A stretch of 24,121 nt of DNA from a virus: UHGV virus genome UHGV-0136745; one strand, written 5' to 3'. This document shows, piece by piece, positions 2,646 through 22,273 of the stretch (position 1 is the first letter of the stretch; every line of letters starts with the position of its first letter). The notes under the pieces are model-generated. The model was not told where the DNA came from, made no database searches, and saw only the letters and a program-made list of their open reading frames with translations. The translations under genes were made by a program, and so were the position numbers.

Positions 2646-3038
2646 CTAACTATAATAGTTTGCTATTAGGTCGTCAACCTGTTTGAACGAGCCAACGACA
2701 AAAACATTTGCGCCACGTTTACGCATCCGCTCATGTTCCCGTAGCTGGTGAGGGTCTGGCTTCGTGTTTTCGTCTTTCTTTACCTCGACGAACCAGATGA
2801 TGCCGTCGGGGAGAATTACCAGCAGGTCGGGGGCGCCTATTCTATTTTCGTACGACAACTTACGAACGAGGCCCCCGATGGCCTCGAATCGCTCTTTTGC
2901 GTATTTCTGAATCTTGCCTTCCGGGGTCATTAACCGATTATCCTGCTGAAAATAGCCGCGCCCAGTAATAAAGCTACAAGTACAGCGATTATAGTTATCA
3001 TAATACGCACCCCTCGCGTTTAGTATGTTCAATCCCAC
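2646..3038 (-). CDS. VRR-NUC domain nuclease (PD-(D/E)XK fold)
   Basis: C-terminal region GAPDLLVILPDGIIWFVEVKKDENTKPDPHQLREHERM matches the VRR-NUC signature (D...E.K plus downstream Q). Start uncertain: GTG at 3038 or internal ATG at 2930 (MTPEGKIQKY). Confidence 0.6.
   Translation of the reverse strand: MGLNILNARGAYYDNYNRCTCSFITGRGYFQQDNRLMTPEGKIQKYAKERFEAIGGLVRKLSYENRIGAPDLLVILPDGIIWFVEVKKDENTKPDPHQLREHERMRKRGANVFVVGSFKQVDDLIANYYS
2649..2677 (-). promoter_or_regulatory. sigma70-like promoter (reverse strand TTGACG-17 nt-TATAGT) with embedded palindrome AATAG-N4-CTATT
   Basis: Reverse complement of 2649..2677 reads TTGACGacctaatagcaaactatTATAGT. Same architecture as the sites at 6152..6180 and 8998..9026. 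Lies inside the last codons of the VRR-NUC gene. Confidence 0.45.
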
Positions 3039-3215: not shown

Positions 3216-5406
3216 AACGTTTCATCTCCGCGCCTTCTGCGACTAAAGGGAACCCCTCGGCCCACTCAGGCAATGCGCACATTAATTTTTCCAGCTCAGC
3301 CACCGTGTACTCCGGTGTATCCGGGGTTTCGCATACCAGTTCATCGTGCACAGAAAGCACGATAGGATACCCACCACCCTCAACATTAACCATTGCATAC
3401 GCAAGTAAATCACGGCACAGCGCCTGAACAATGTTTTCACAGGCCTTGCCGCCGTGTGTGTACAGGGTGGTCCATTGGCGGGTTAACTGGTTTTCACCCT
3501 GGTATTTGATTCGCACATTTGTGTTTACCCGTCCGTCTTCGTCGGTTTCTTTTGTCACACTAACGCCGATTCCTGGATACGATAGAATCCGAGCCGACGG
3601 CAACTCCATACACAACCACCAACCGGGAACTTTCCTGCCGGACGAATCGGTTTCTACTGTTCTCCAGATTCGGATGGCGCGTTCACCATTCTTGCGCAGA
3701 TGCGCCCCTGCCCAAAACTCACGACCCGGATTTCTTACAGCGGCTAAAATTCCATCTTTAAGGTCGCGCCAGAAAGCTACTGTTTCCGGGTGTGACTCAC
3801 GCCACATACGCTTGATCGCGTCGCATGTACGCCAGACTTTCTTATCAAGAATATATGAAGGTCTGTCATCTTTTTCACCGGGACGCGGGGGGCGCTTGGC
3901 TTCCTGAATACGTGCCCACTCGTAACCCCGTGCCGTAGCGGCCCATATATGGTCAGGGAAAGTCCCGTCCATTGTTTTTGCCATCTCAATAAGGTCAAGA
4001 CCTAGGTTTTTAGCAAACGTAACGAACGCTCCTACGCCCCCCTCATAGCCTAGGCCAAGCTCGCAAGCCTTGCCTATCTGTCTGATTTCCTTGAAGTTTT
4101 TCTTAATGTCATCTGGGTCCATGCCGAACATCTTACCTGCGGTTACACAGTAAATATCCAGTCCGGCGCGGAACGTATCGAGCGCGGTTTCTTCTCCTGC
4201 CAGCCATGCCAACCCGCGGCCTTCGACGTTAGAGTAATCGGCGACGACAAACTTATGTCCTGCTTCCGGGATAATGCAGCTACGAACCGTCGATGCCGTT
4301 AGTTTGGCTACGTCAAAACGGCGATGCGCGCGCCCCTTAAGTAGCGCCGCAATTCCTTTATCCAGTTCATCGTCATGATAGTACCCGCGCGCCAGGTTCT
4401 GTGGCTGGAAGCCTTTACCCGCCCATCGCAGAGTACGTTTCGCCCCGCCGTACTGCAAGCAACCACGGCGGCGGTCGTCAGAAGAACGGCCCAACAGCAG
4501 GGGGTTATATTTCGTAGACGCAGTTGACGCCGCGCCCAGGCGCATTTCTATAATCGTGCGCGCATCGTCCGGTAAATCCTCGTCCGCCAGCAGGTCATGA
4601 AGTGTTGACTTCTGCGCATTGTGAATGCGGTGAGCGGGGGCCAGTTCACGCAGAATCGGCAGGAAGTCTTTGCCGGTTAGCGAGCCGCCGTATTTACGCT
4701 GAGCTTCTTCCTGCAACTGCGCCTTGTGTTTCTCTACGGCTTCAATCGCGGATTCCGCCAGAGCGACATCAACCTTAAACCCACGGTCGTTGATTAACTG
4801 GTCCAGTTCCAGAACCCGGTCCTCGAACTCGGAGTTACCCCAACGCGGCAGCTTGTGGAATACTTCACGCATCGCTGTTATGTCGCTCACGGCGTACTTG
4901 ATGAACAACGCCCACTCGTCCGGGTGCGTTTCGGCAGTGTAGCGACGGATTTTATAGTTCTTCGGCGTAGGTTTAGAGAAACGCTGAATCAGCGCCTTGC
5001 CTCGTTTGTCTTTTGCATTGTCCGCAGATACCCCAAGCACTTCACACAACGCATCGAGTGACCCCGGCAGCGCGTGGCGAAACGCCCAAATCATCGTATC
5101 AATGGTGTTGCTGACCGGAATATCGAAGTCCCAGCAGTGCTTCATGATGAGACGGTCGAACATTGAGCCGTTGTGCCAGACCATCTTGATACGGCTGTTC
5201 GGCTTAACCAGGCGGCGCAGTGCACGGTGCAAATCGCCTGGCATGTCGCTGCCGTCTGTGCAATCCCATACCTGAACAGGTTCATCGTCGAAGGCGTAGG
5301 TGCAGATAAGCACTCCGGTAGTCGGGTGTTCGGCGTAGGCATAGGAGCCGACTTTCTTCAAATCGGCTTCGGAGAAGGTTTCAAAGTCCAAGAACAGGTA
5401 ACTCAT
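3205..5406 (-). CDS. DNA polymerase, family A (Pol I-like) with 3'-5' proofreading exonuclease domain
   Basis: 733 aa. Exo I motif FLDFETFS near N-terminus; polymerase motif A VVADYSNVEGRGLAWLAGE, motif B RQIGKACELGLGYEGG (K...YG), motif C LSVHDELV. Confidence 0.9.
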   Translation of the reverse strand: MSYLFLDFETFSEADLKKVGSYAYAEHPTTGVLICTYAFDDEPVQVWDCTDGSDMPGDLHRALRRLVKPNSRIKMVWHNGSMFDRLIMKHCWDFDIPVSNTIDTMIWAFRHALPGSLDALCEVLGVSADNAKDKRGKALIQRFSKPTPKNYKIRRYTAETHPDEWALFIKYAVSDITAMREVFHKLPRWGNSEFEDRVLELDQLINDRGFKVDVALAESAIEAVEKHKAQLQEEAQRKYGGSLTGKDFLPILRELAPAHRIHNAQKSTLHDLLADEDLPDDARTIIEMRLGAASTASTKYNPLLLGRSSDDRRRGCLQYGGAKRTLRWAGKGFQPQNLARGYYHDDELDKGIAALLKGRAHRRFDVAKLTASTVRSCIIPEAGHKFVVADYSNVEGRGLAWLAGEETALDTFRAGLDIYCVTAGKMFGMDPDDIKKNFKEIRQIGKACELGLGYEGGVGAFVTFAKNLGLDLIEMAKTMDGTFPDHIWAATARGYEWARIQEAKRPPRPGEKDDRPSYILDKKVWRTCDAIKRMWRESHPETVAFWRDLKDGILAAVRNPGREFWAGAHLRKNGERAIRIWRTVETDSSGRKVPGWWLCMELPSARILSYPGIGVSVTKETDEDGRVNTNVRIKYQGENQLTRQWTTLYTHGGKACENIVQALCRDLLAYAMVNVEGGGYPIVLSVHDELVCETPDTPEYTVAELEKLMCALPEWAEGFPLVAEGAEMKRYAK

Positions 5407-6151: not shown

Positions 6152-6180
6152 ACTATAATAGCTAACTATTCAGTAGTCAA
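6152..6180 (-). promoter_or_regulatory. sigma70-like promoter (reverse strand TTGACT-17 nt-TATAGT) with embedded palindrome AATAG-N4-CTATT
   Basis: Reverse complement reads TTGACTactgaatagttagctatTATAGT. A CCGGG/CCCGG hairpin lies in the predicted 5' UTR (6126..6140) ahead of the SSB-like gene. Confidence 0.5.
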
Positions 6181-8997: not shown

Positions 8998-9026
8998 ACT
9001 ATAATAGCAAACTATTCACCTGTCAA
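8998..9026 (-). promoter_or_regulatory. sigma70-like leftward promoter (TTGACA-17 nt-TATAGT) with embedded palindrome AATAG-N4-CTATT
   Basis: Reverse complement reads TTGACAggtgaatagtttgctatTATAGT: consensus -35, 17-nt spacer, near-consensus -10. Divergent from the HTH gene promoter. Confidence 0.55.
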
Positions 9027-9089: not shown

Positions 9090-9314
9090 ATGCAACAGTC
9101 ACCAATTGGCGCTCGTATGGAGCAACGCCGTAAAGAGCTTGGCCTGTCCCAGCGCCGTTTAGCTACTCTGGTCGGCGTTTCCCAGGGGGCGATTAACCAA
9201 CTTGCCCTCGGCGTAACTCAAGATGTCCGTCGCACCACTCTGTTTAAACTTGCGGAAGTTCTCGAAGTTAAGCCAGAGTGGTTAGCTTTCGGTGACCAGA
9301 CTCAAGGGGCTTAA
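9090..9314 (+). CDS. HTH-XRE family transcriptional regulator (Cro/CI-like)
   Basis: 74 aa; ELGLSQRRLATLVGVSQGAINQLALG is a classic XRE helix-turn-helix. AAGGAG SD upstream. Only rightward gene in this region. Confidence 0.85.
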   Translation: MQQSPIGARMEQRRKELGLSQRRLATLVGVSQGAINQLALGVTQDVRRTTLFKLAEVLEVKPEWLAFGDQTQGA

Positions 9315-11654: not shown

Positions 11655-11945
11655 TTAACGTTTAGCCAGACATTCCATTAAATGTGAATATTTTCTGTAA
11701 TAGCAAGGAACTAAATCACACCCAAAATAATGATAAACATAATCCAAGTGGTCGGTAACATCTATAGCGGCCGACATTGTGCTAAGACGGCGAAGGCTAA
11801 TCAACTGTAATTCTTCCGTAATGCAAAATGGCTCATACGTATCAAGTTTGCAAGAAACGTTAAAACACAGAGCATAGCCGTCTTGTGCGGAGTGGACCAG
11901 AAATGCACTGTCGTTCTCTTTATCGTGAAAAATTACACCTTTCAT
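11655..11945 (-). CDS. hypothetical protein (96 aa)
   Basis: ORF in operon orientation; start overlaps stop of upstream AlpA-like gene (ATGA). No recognisable motif. Confidence 0.45.
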   Translation of the reverse strand: MKGVIFHDKENDSAFLVHSAQDGYALCFNVSCKLDTYEPFCITEELQLISLRRLSTMSAAIDVTDHLDYVYHYFGCDLVPCYYRKYSHLMECLAKR

Positions 11946-12112
11946 CTCACATTCTCCTTAACCCACGCTTCTACTTTATTTCGGTCAAACGTACCCGGCA
12001 TACGGCGGCCCATTACTTTAACGCTGCAATCAGGGAACTTCCCGCTTTTAATCCAGTTGTTTATTGTCTGGCGAGTAACTCCGATTAATTCTGCAACCTC
12101 GTTTATAGTCAT
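11942..12112 (-). CDS. AlpA/excisionase-family HTH DNA-binding protein (56 aa)
   Basis: MTINEVAELIGVTRQTINNWIKSGKFP is the AlpA/Xis-type HTH signature. Start at internal ATG 12112 with AGGAGA SD; track ORF extends to 12184 with an implausible Cys-rich N-terminus. Confidence 0.65.
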   Translation of the reverse strand: MTINEVAELIGVTRQTINNWIKSGKFPDCSVKVMGRRMPGTFDRNKVEAWVKENVR

Positions 12113-12522
12113 TTCACGCTCTCCTGTGTAAGATGTAGTGAAGTATAAAGCGGTAACTTTGTAAAAGCAACCAAAACAACACACAAAGCACTAAGATACA
12201 AAAGATGCTACTGGTATTGACTTTTACTTAAAAATATGCTAAGCTTCACTGAGCTTGTGAGATATCGCAAGCGACCGCGGAGCGGCAGGGAACGCAACGC
12301 GTGCCATCAGGCACTTGAGTGTAGTTCCGCTGGCGCTTTCGGAAGGGCCAAAGTCTATTGTTAATCACGCCTAAATACCCAAGTCACTGATAATTAAAGT
12401 TTCTATAGTTGCCGTAAGCAAGGTAGCGAGTACTTCACTCCGCTGGGGTGGGCTAACGCCCACCCACTGCGTTGCGTACTCTTTTAAGAAAACGAAGAAT
12501 CACAACGGCAACGAATCTTCGC

Positions 12523-12551
12523 TTGCACACCCCAATATAATAGGCTACTAT
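12523..12551 (+). promoter_or_regulatory. rightward promoter (TTGCAC-17 nt-TACTAT) with embedded palindrome AATAG-N4-CTATT
   Basis: cTTGCACaccccaatataataggcTACTATtcacttatcgaaacgag; about 45 nt are near-identical to 13896..13940. Precedes the first small-gene operon. Confidence 0.45.
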
Positions 12552-12585
12552 TCACTTATCGAAACGAGACAGATGAGTGGGGGTT

Positions 12586-12777
12586 ATGTTTAAGAAGGGT
12601 CAGTTGGTGCGAACCGCAGACGGCATCTATGGAGTTATCGAAAAAGAGAGTACTGTGTATCGAAGGTCGTATATAGTCCGTTCTCTTTATATCAGCGGGT
12701 CAGTATCTGTGCTGGTTTGCGACATAAATGAGCTACTACTCATCGGCAACAATTTTAAATTCAAAGGGGCGAAGTGA
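12586..12777 (+). CDS. hypothetical protein (63 aa)
   Basis: ATG 12586 preceded by GAGTGGGGG; alternative GTG at 12577. First gene of rightward operon. Confidence 0.5.
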   Translation: MFKKGQLVRTADGIYGVIEKESTVYRRSYIVRSLYISGSVSVLVCDINELLLIGNNFKFKGAK

Positions 12778-12980
12778 TGGAAGAATTATTTGAAGAACTG
12801 AAACACCATGAACTGGAAGAAGTGCATTTCCGGGTAAACAGATACGAAGTTGTTATTTTAGGTGGGGTAACAATTATCACAGCTTCTGCGGGAAGAATGC
12901 TTCATAGTTTACGTTCCATACGAACGACATCGAATCATGATGCCAGTGCCGACGACTCTGAGGGAGGTTGCCGTGAATAA
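12774..12980 (+). CDS. hypothetical protein (68 aa)
   Basis: Start overlaps upstream stop (GTGATGG). Acidic N-terminus. Confidence 0.5.
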   Translation: MMEELFEELKHHELEEVHFRVNRYEVVILGGVTIITASAGRMLHSLRSIRTTSNHDASADDSEGGCRE

Positions 12981-13890: not shown

Positions 13891-13897
13891 AATTTAC

Positions 13898-13926
13898 TTG
13901 CACACGTAGATATAATAGACTACTAT
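13898..13926 (+). promoter_or_regulatory. rightward promoter (TTGCAC-17 nt-TACTAT) with embedded palindrome AATAG-N4-CTATT
   Basis: cTTGCACacgtagatataatagacTACTATtcagttatcgaaacgag; near-identical to the 12523 promoter cassette. Confidence 0.45.
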
Positions 13927-13957
13927 TCAGTTATCGAAACGAGAGGAGAGACAGAGC

Positions 13958-22251: not shown

Positions 22252-22273
22252 AGCCCCGAAAGGGGCTTTCTTA
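22252..22273 (+). terminator. weak terminator/attenuator hairpin between portal and head morphogenesis genes
   Basis: AGCCCC-gaaa-GGGGCT followed by TTCTTAT (short, interrupted U tract). Confidence 0.35.

Follow-up and report, generated by a model that had tools for sequence, protein, structure and literature searches.

The window that we analysed is a DNA stretch of 24,121 nt from a virus, and on sequence grounds the phage is a Kagunavirus (Guernseyvirinae) siphophage. Across positions 12100-12600 its identity was 96% to NRG857CP3 (Kagunavirus) and 92-95% to phiEc3, phiEc4, AV104 and others. A non-coding interval lies here between two divergent operons, and it was delimited as 12113-12585 because the HTH_17 gene ends at 12112 and the first rightward gene starts at 12586 (Table 1). 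The divergent arrangement agrees with an earlier reading of the DNA alone (the original prediction), in which the region was said to separate a leftward AlpA-like/primase operon from a rightward operon. Beyond the HTH_17 gene the left operon continues with a 96-aa ORF and then with a 754-aa AAA_25 helicase-primase. The small ORFs present in the gap were not conserved, as expected from the claim that it holds no credible ORF, and with ARAGORN we found no tRNA or tmRNA genes in the window. The fold of the whole gap had a z-score of -5.15, and 0 of 100 shuffles were equally stable.

Read against its relatives, the gap was resolved into at least five separate elements and not into a single structure, and it is a compound control region. 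Of the structured non-coding region of about 400 bp that had been proposed, the non-coding nature and the folding beyond chance stand; however, it is a mosaic of elements, and the gap is slightly larger than the 12113-12520 originally given. The gap has one AT-rich stretch (12100-12250, 34-37% GC), which is accounted for because two back-to-back promoters lie there. The leftward one stayed below the threshold of the promoter scan, and we infer that it would serve the AlpA-like/helicase-primase operon; in the alignment its hexamers were kept as TTGTGT/TATAGT in K1G and as TTGATT/TATACT in the Salmonella phage Kenya-K6 (Jerseyvirus). The rightward promoter, TTGACT-N17-TAAGCT, is near consensus and occurs only once in the window. 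It was kept almost base for base 5' of every copy of the RNA core described below, at both genomic loci, and the divergent Jerseyvirus class carries a homologous promoter, TAGACT-N17(TGn)-TACGCT. The same promoter was independently annotated as a host promoter by the authors of fBC-Eco01. A second rightward promoter, at 12523-12552, belongs together with 13897-13944 to one repeat family, of which the copies in phiEc4 are always directed at the adjacent gene.

Table 1. Features of the gap between the divergent operons and of its borders (positions in the window).
Feature	Position	Strand	Evidence or remark
HTH_17 (AlpA/excisionase-type) gene, 56 aa	11942..12112	-	abuts gap on left
Non-coding interval between divergent operons (473 nt)	12113..12585	.	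gene bounds, no conserved ORF, fold z = -5.15
Predicted leftward sigma70 promoter of AlpA-like/helicase-primase operon	12142..12170	-	-35 TTGCTT 12170..12165, 17-nt spacer, -10 TATACT 12147..12142
Rightward promoter of RNA module, extended -10	12217..12245	+	-35 TTGACT 12217-12222, 17-nt spacer ending TGc (TG 12237-12238), -10 TAAGCT 12240-12245
Structured RNA core: P1, P2, conserved single-stranded tail	12251..12360	+	predicted transcript start ~12251-12253; covariance model R1 111.6 bits, E 2e-30
P1 hairpin, 8 bp, GAUA loop	12253..12272	+	stem base GCU/AGC invariant in all classes
P2, long irregular hairpin	12275..12342	+	folds and covariation
P2a	12275-77/12340-42	+	paired arms; bulged C12278 adjoins
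P2b	12279-84/12334-39	+	paired arms
P2c	12286-88/12330-32	+	paired arms
P2d	12289-93/12324-28	+	paired arms
P2 apical hairpin GUGCC-AUCA-GGCAC	12301..12314	+	at least 5 stem sequences in relatives, all paired
Conserved unpaired 3' tail AAGGGCC-AAAG-UCUAUUG	12343..12360	+	UUCGGAAGG.CC and UAUUG nearly invariant across all classes
Downstream block of early intergenic region, whole subfamily	12381..12520	+	90% identical in K1G, which is without core at early locus
GUUGCCGU, 5' strand of possible long-range helix enclosing GC hairpin	12408..12415	+	8-nt perfect complement of 12505-12512
GC hairpin GGGUGGGC-UAAC-GCCCACCC, 8-bp stem	12446..12465	+	inverted repeat; differing stems in other clades
ACGGCAAC, 3' partner of 12408-12415, within invariant AATCACAACGGCAACG box	12505..12512	+	complementarity
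Second rightward promoter	12523..12552	+	-35 TTGCAC 12523-28, N17, -10 TACTAT 12546-51; overlapped by palindrome AATAG-GCTA-CTATT (12539-12552)
First rightward gene	12586..12777	+	right border of gap

The RNA core consists of two hairpins followed by the tail, with P1 through P2 extending over ~90 nt. P2 is irregular, comprises 22-23 bp and includes a conserved internal loop, in which the semi-conserved GAGUGUAG lies. The fold of the core (12251-12349) had a z-score of -3.99, and none of 200 shuffles was equally stable. Six core variants and the Jerseyvirus class were folded independently and gave the same minimum-energy architecture, that is, P1, P2a-P2d, the internal loop and the apical hairpin. 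Invariant nucleotides were found in the base of P1 (GCU/AGC), in the junction and the base of P2 (ACCGCGG.GC ... GC.UUCGG) and in the tail (AAGG.CC ... UAUUG), and the interior of P2 was variable in both sequence and length. Two hairpins of the original prediction are part of this fold: GCTTG..CAAGC around GATATC corresponds to P1 (12253-12272), and GTGCC-atca-GGCAC (12301-12314) is the tip of P2, where relatives carry the compensating stems GGGAC/GUCC, GGUGC/GCAC, CACG/CGUG and GGGCG/CGCCC. A third one, TTCCG...CGGAA at 12325-12344, falls outside the conserved fold, in which GUUCC at 12324-12328 pairs with GGAAC at 12289-12293 and UUUCGG at 12337-12342, in the other arm, pairs with the 5' strand of P2a/P2b at 12275-12281.

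With a covariance model of the common fold (R1), 66 instances were found in 64 Guernseyvirinae loci. Covariation across related phages, proposed earlier as a check, was determined from 35 distinct sequences including the Jerseyvirus class; in this alignment, which was fitted to the model and hence favours the structure, 93.3% of the pair cells were canonical, as compared to 27-41% when the 3' partners were slid by 1-3 columns, and 10 of the 28 pairs had changed on both sides (93 cells). The covariation score was 0.279 versus 0.111 in column shuffles, and it was reached by none of 500 shuffles. The main helices were also recovered in a plain MAFFT/RNAalifold result and in the independent single-sequence folds. 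For example, pair 12281/12337 is A-U in the window, C-G in 16 and U-A in 15 other distinct sequences, and pair 12290/12327 is G-C in the window and U-A or A-U elsewhere. The + strand fold was more stable than the - strand fold in all 21 variants (mean -39.4 versus -29.2 kcal/mol). Because G-U pairs are conserved the fold is specific to one strand, and the + strand preference matches the direction of the promoter, which argues for an RNA over a DNA cruciform. The earlier proposal of a regulatory RNA is in substance supported by a conserved promoter that leads into a ~100-nt fold, which compensatory changes and G-U pairs maintain on the + strand only. The core is a strongly supported structured RNA family that is coupled to its own promoter and was previously undescribed.

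A small protein of ~35-40 aa was considered, as several GenBank records (for example Bas74_0007 and fBCEco01_09) annotate a hypothetical protein of 36-39 aa over the core, and the authors of fBC-Eco01 placed a hypothetical CDS over the RNA. A frame through TTC GGA AGG GCC is open in many variants and gives a common ...AFGRA..YC stretch, in which a few of the differences are at third codon positions. However, 5' of this stretch the variants run in different frames (KRPRRGQ.., EQATAARQ.., SDRGA..), and the frame is cut by TAG in the ten closest relatives of the window and by 1-nt indels in others. Radical substitutions (A to P, L to G, R to L) are present, the candidate starts fall within P1 and have no Shine-Dalgarno sequence before them, and no reading frame with start signals was conserved across the core homologues. 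We consider it scarcely credible that the core encodes such a protein. Many GenBank records carry a "hypothetical protein" over the RNA, an annotation that according to the evidence presented here is wrong.

Rfam 15 (4,227 models, including EAR, riboswitches and small ribozymes) gave no match to the window at gathering thresholds, and with E values up to 10 the only match in 11900-12700 was OrzO-P at chance level, on the opposite strand (17.8 bits, gathering threshold 60). A host homologue or mimic was not detected with blastn in 5,426 complete E. coli genomes. When 185,579 bacterial species genomes were scanned with a pattern, only chance matches were seen, together with one phage contig that was mis-binned in a Bacillota MAG. 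In a metagenome scan with the junction/tail pattern many chance matches and no sequence types beyond those known were obtained, and loose pattern and 15-mer searches in viral sequences yielded mostly noise. The literature on fBC-Eco01 and Golestan contains generic promoter and terminator predictions only and proposes no RNA, the K1B4 RNA-seq paper does not treat non-coding regions, and a search for strings of the core sequence in papers returned nothing relevant.

By blastn with the gap it was found that 12217-12360 is ~80% identical to a non-coding stretch elsewhere in most Guernseyvirinae. This second place, the S locus, has a Hoc-like head-decoration gene on one side and the Rz/Rz1 spanin genes on the other, with the scaffold and major capsid genes shortly downstream. 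In phiEc4, which is of the window's clade, both copies are present (4997-5139 and 37483 onward) and are 79.6% identical. Contigs that hold both copies have them 10-13 kb apart in the same orientation, and because of this spacing the S copy of the window phage would fall just past the end of the window. Among the 181 matching GenBank phage records, 180 carry the S copy at 90% identity or more, and 43 show the second place, namely the early (E) copy. A divergent S class was found at the same locus in the Jerseyvirus group of Kenya-K6, SETP3, SS3e and SE2, in 269 further records; it was detected only by the covariance model (44 bits, E 2e-11). The S-locus copy is thus found in a total of ~450 GenBank phage records, in two sequence classes (181 and 269). 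As the apparent non-carriers hold the divergent class at the S locus, the S element is essentially universal in the subfamily.

The S copy is also better conserved than what surrounds it. In a comparison of K1ind1 (Kagunavirus) with FSL SP-101 (Jerseyvirus), identity was 91-96% in the S gap and 62-90% in the flanking genes. Similarly, in 32 distinct S sequences the interval from promoter to Rz, linker included, hardly varied, whereas the Rz codons that follow varied freely. At the early locus, K1G and Kenya-K6 have another sequence in place of the promoter and core and keep the downstream block and the second promoter; because these relatives keep just the latter two, the window's clade has an extra copy of the promoter and core only. 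We also considered the early-locus cassettes of K1G and Kenya-K6 as very diverged cores and rejected this, R1 scoring them at 8.3 bits or less. Judged from these comparisons, the promoter and RNA unit of the window is a diverged, lineage-specific duplicate and the S copy is the subfamily-wide original. Core variants have been swapped between the two loci in different phages (for example L028 and L058), and because of this exchange the module is regarded as portable. As far as comparison of relatives can tell, the unit at 12217-12360, as the second, diverged copy in the early gap, is a real new RNA element; its functional role is one that we infer.

The block downstream of the core was present in three sequence forms across the clades. 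Common to all three are AAGU.CUGAU, UGCCGUA, a GC hairpin with differing, compensating stems, and the invariant AATCACAACGGCAACG box, which is located just 5' of the second promoter. The GC hairpin at 12446-12465 had been predicted as a perfect stem and holds up, as other clades have different, compensating stems at the same place, GGUGCC-UUCG-GGCACC or GGGCAGGC..GCCUGCCC with UUUAGUU, the latter being the K1ind1/Kenya-K6 form. The terminator scan called no intrinsic terminators in 11800-12800; the hairpin was not called because it has no U-tract, and it is followed by ACUGCGUUGCG. At the S locus, the module and Rz are separated by a GC hairpin that scores highest of the + strand terminator candidates and is annotated as a terminator in fBC-Eco01. 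Its stems also compensate (GCCCCGC/GCGGGGC, GCCCUGC/GCAGGGC, GCCCGAC/GUCGGGC and GCCCGGC/GCCGGGC), and the hairpin of the Jerseyvirus class has a poor U-tract. In the minimum-energy fold of the early region 12408-12415 is paired with 12505-12512, and both strands are nearly invariant. Variation is sparse, and in the UGCCGU/ACGGCA pairing three variants keep it through G-U and two break it, so that the long-range helix around the GC hairpin is a weak proposal. The downstream block may act as a weak terminator or as a structural 3' domain, or it may be a DNA site that serves the promoter after it.

As to function, the working model with the best support is a leader of the put or nut type. Under this model, the extended -10 sigma70 promoter at 12217-12245 would start a rightward transcript in which the ~100-nt folded RNA is begun at once. 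The leader RNA would act on the transcribing RNA polymerase, either alone, as HK022 put does, or together with a factor, as in lambda nut, and polymerase from 12217-12245 would then pass the GC hairpin or terminator ~85-105 nt downstream and enter the rightward operon. The invariant cluster formed by the P1 base, the P1-P2 junction, the P2 base and the 3' tail would be the functional surface, and the variable interior of P2 would be a scaffold. That the RNA is a cis-acting 5' leader governing read-through of its own transcript is the reading towards which we lean, without calling it probable.

We lean towards cis action because the unit that was duplicated and exchanged consists of the promoter and core without any terminator, because at both loci the module is directed into a long operon, from which a GC hairpin separates it, and because the conservation of junction and tail points to a specific macromolecular partner. 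Moreover, no known antiterminator protein was seen among the window ORFs (Q, N or other antiterminator Pfam domains were not found in the 28 ORFs of the 24-kb window), and the layout parallels that of putL (PMC9378689). As the hairpin at the S locus is the best + strand terminator candidate and is kept by compensation, a strong promoter would there be deliberately followed by a hairpin before essential late genes. However, some findings count against a cis leader. The hairpin at 12446-12465 has no U-tract and that of the Jerseyvirus class a poor one, so that there may be little termination to overcome; the whole S interval from promoter to Rz is conserved, which a discrete ~200-nt RNA would fit equally well; and the second promoter (12523-12551) already serves the rightward operon.

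In phage HK022, putL is made up of two stem-loops just downstream of a promoter, with two similar copies per genome; put acts in cis against both intrinsic and Rho-dependent terminators, needs no phage protein and is blocked by mutations in the zinc-binding domain of the RNA polymerase beta' subunit (PMC9378689). The element described here is like putL and putR in that a sigma70 promoter lies directly 5' of it and the RNA is predicted to begin within a few nt of the start, and in having two stem-loops of which one is long and irregular (P1 from 12253, P2 to 12342). It can likewise occur in two similar, non-identical copies per genome, each at the head of an operon, has terminator-like hairpins downstream and goes without a recognised dedicated protein factor. 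It is unlike put in its size (~90-nt fold versus ~72 nt), in being carried by a virulent and non-lambdoid phage, and in that the universal copy heads late structural and not early genes. Homology to putL/putR, read from NC_002166, was considered and rejected, with no common motifs and an R1 score of at most 8 bits with filters off (E = 2). The RNA might be a processive antiterminator that needs no factor and binds the host RNA polymerase during elongation, with a put-like function on an unrelated, independent fold, and would then be a portable cassette universal in a virulent siphophage subfamily (~450 genomes); in this specific form we hold the proposal to be rather doubtful.

Lambda offers two further comparisons. 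With PR'-qut-6S RNA-tR' the S locus has in common a strong promoter that looks constitutive, a ~200-nt non-coding leader and a hairpin before the Rz/Rz1 and head genes. Unlike in the Q/qut system, no Q-family protein was found in the window, what is conserved in both copies is an RNA fold and not a promoter DNA site, and the copy in the window precedes early or accessory genes. The lambda nutL and nutR sites are similarly paralogous RNA sites near the starts of two operons, whereas the element here is ~100 nt as compared to the 15-nt boxB hairpin and no N-like protein was recognised. A boxA-like UACUCUUUUAAG (12476-12487) lies 3' of the GC hairpin in the window/K1G form of the downstream block and is absent from the other two; a lambda nut site was rejected, the boxA-like string being confined to one of the three block forms and no boxB-type hairpin being present. 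When a riboswitch-type attenuator was considered, the invariant junction and tail with a variable distal stem were found to be an aptamer-like pattern of conservation. The best duplex between the core and the 5' arm of the terminator was -13.1 kcal/mol, no convincing antiterminator alternative was obtained, and the early-locus hairpin is found in core-less phages too.

The cis leader has a serious rival in a discrete sRNA or in a terminated leader of the lambda 6S kind. The module may produce a stand-alone trans-acting sRNA of ~200-220 nt, from the promoter at 12217-12245 to the hairpin at 12446-12465, with host or phage targets or a host protein as its partner, the early copy being a paralogue of the S-locus sRNA. 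This we regard as a distinct possibility, although not a likely one. A GC hairpin lies ~200-220 nt from the predicted start at both loci, the S unit is complete with linker and hairpin, nearly invariant and more conserved than its neighbour genes, and the conserved tail, being unpaired, might function as a seed; in addition, the Kagunavirus-type S hairpin is the one that scores, and is annotated in fBC-Eco01, as a terminator. However, the early copy came without a terminator of its own, the hairpin downstream of it is part of a block that core-less phages have as well and is without a U-tract in the window, we identified no target complementarity, and the 5,426 complete E. coli genomes contain no homologue that it could mimic. 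RNA processing or stability is a less plausible role, and one that we think improbable: P2, either as a double-stranded RNase III-type site or as a 5' stabiliser, would determine the 5' end of the downstream mRNA and its half-life, in the manner of the T7 RNase III sites. These sites (R0.3, R1.1 and others) form a paralogous family of hairpins, irregular and 50-70 nt long, that share a conserved internal loop and lie in polycistronic transcripts. The size and shape of P2 appear similar to those of R1.1-type sites, and the paralogous copies with a conserved internal loop, here at operon heads, are a further likeness. Unlike the T7 sites, however, the element has its own promoter, to which it is tied at every copy, a second hairpin and an invariant single-stranded tail; the strict sequence conservation of junction and tail exceeds what a dsRNA cleavage site needs, and processing right at the start of a transcript is of little obvious use.

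Two DNA-level roles had been suggested originally. As a replication origin the region would use the promoter for a primer or R-loop transcript and its hairpins in single-stranded DNA. It adjoins the helicase-primase operon and includes the AT-rich 12100-12250, and promoter-dependent phage origins exist, such as the T7 primary origin and T4 oriF/oriG. However, the gap has no iterons or direct-repeat arrays, its AT-rich stretch is explained by the back-to-back promoters, the fold, owing to its G-U pairs, is strand-specific as RNA, and the ancestral, universal copy lies in the structural-gene module while many relatives are without the early-locus copy, all of which makes an origin very unlikely. 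If the AlpA-like HTH protein used the region as a DNA binding platform, this would be in keeping with the 56-aa HTH_17 gene that abuts it, as regulators often bind beside their own gene. No repeated DNA motif was found within 12113-12520, though, and the covariation keeps the pairing and not the sequence, which is unexpected for a protein-binding DNA site. The operator-like palindrome AATAG-N4-CTATT, with 9 sites in the window against 0.59 expected, instead lies at 12539-12552, outside the interval proposed, and at promoters elsewhere in the genome, and we give the platform next to no weight. What is left after these readings would, as a rough division, go to something that we did not consider.

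Phages of the Guernseyvirinae (Jerseyvirus, Kagunavirus) rank with those most frequently isolated and suggested for treating infections with Salmonella and pathogenic E. coli. To our knowledge, their genomes lack genes for an RNA polymerase, a sigma factor and any recognisable antiterminator. An RNA that is coupled to a promoter, exceeds the neighbouring genes in conservation and stands directly before the spanin, scaffold and capsid genes is an obvious candidate for the missing control point in the timing of their gene expression. If a put-like modification of the polymerase were true, the element would represent only the second RNA class of this kind in enterobacterial phages; the cassette would give terminator-resistant transcription to whichever operon follows, and it would provide a compact part for terminator-proof expression.

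A resemblance to CRISPR was also noted, in that the window-type core shares the 10-nt CCGCTGGCGC with what we take to be the antisense of the E. coli type I-E repeat. The string is not shared by the other core types and conflicts with the covariation-supported fold, and it was treated as a chance match.

The AATAG-N4-CTATT palindrome occurs at nine sites in the window against 0.59 expected, and the setting of its copies is invariably promoter-like sequence. It lies within the spacer of three leftward promoters (TTGAC.-N17-TATAGT) and overlaps the -10 of two rightward TTGCAC-N17-TACTAT promoters. The same consensus was recovered with PHIRE in the fBC-Eco01 paper and was attributed there to a phage RNA polymerase; no RNA polymerase was recognised when 28 ORFs of the window were scanned against Pfam. 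The palindrome has the look of an operator to which a phage-encoded regulator would bind, either the HTH_3 protein (9090-9314) or the HTH_17 protein (11942-12112).

The same half-sites, in the opposite arrangement, make up CTATTCGAATAG, a perfect 12-bp palindrome that abuts the promoter of the RNA module (an extended -10 promoter with a structured RNA core) directly 5' of the -35 in most module copies at the structural locus, between the head-decoration and Rz spanin genes, including those of the relatives L002-L005. The window's own module copy, at the early locus between the divergent operons, does not have CTATTCGAATAG, and this difference in sequence suggests that the two module copies are regulated differently.

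Positions of palindromes and terminator-like hairpins in the window and in the relative L005
Feature	Sequence	Positions
AATAG-N4-CTATT, perfect copies	window	2654-2667, 6157-6170, 9003-9016, 12539-12552, 13914-13927
AATAG-N4-CTATT, one-mismatch copies	window	445, 9046, 16849, 22272
CTATTCGAATAG palindrome, example copy	L005	4985-4996
Intrinsic-terminator-like hairpin	window	22252-22267
Intrinsic-terminator-like hairpins	L005	2756-2771, 4339-4359, 7597-7618, 11671-11690

The rightward late operon is interrupted by strong intrinsic-terminator-like hairpins 3' of the portal, decoration, major capsid and tail genes. Expression of the genes beyond these hairpins requires either read-through or internal promoters, which makes the hairpins relevant to the antitermination hypothesis.

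At the early locus, the block downstream of the core varies among relatives. In Golestan-type Kagunaviruses (L018, L026, L031, L077, L086, L096, L116 and L166) it carries a (CTCA)n microsatellite of variable copy number, from 3 to 7 units, followed on the 3' side by a GGUGCC-UUCG-GGCACC tetraloop hairpin that replaces the GGGUGGGC hairpin of the window. In L023, L058, L073, L078, L100 and L116 the second rightward promoter is followed by a different first gene of the rightward operon, which starts with ATGAACAAAGCGACCGC and is absent from the window. This start matches 16 of the 17 nt, with one indel, of ATGAACAAGCGACCGC, the segment from the P1 loop to the base of P2 in the common core type, and the match may be a trace of recombination. 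L116 (JAEWLW010000073.1) is a 6.2-kb contig labelled "MAG: Bacillota bacterium" in which the early-locus RNA module is complete (106.7 bits) and is accompanied by Guernseyvirinae sequence; it is a phage contig wrongly binned into a Bacillota MAG.

Two short matches involve the core itself. ACGCAACGC (12291-12300), which makes up the 5' strand of the internal loop in P2 and is found only in the core type of the window, has a perfect complement in GCGUUGCGU (12469-12477), directly 3' of the GC hairpin of the downstream block, and this complementarity is absent from the other core types at the early locus. As about 0.5 such 9-mer complementarities are expected by chance per 500 nt, the pairing may be fortuitous. 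Additionally, the 10 nt of CCGCTGGCGC (12326-12335) match, base for base, a stretch of the type I-E CRISPR repeat of E. coli read in antisense (GAGTTCCCCGCGCCAGCGGGGATAAACCG). Chance probably accounts for this identity, because other core variants differ from the window at these positions and the covariation-supported fold puts the bases to another use.
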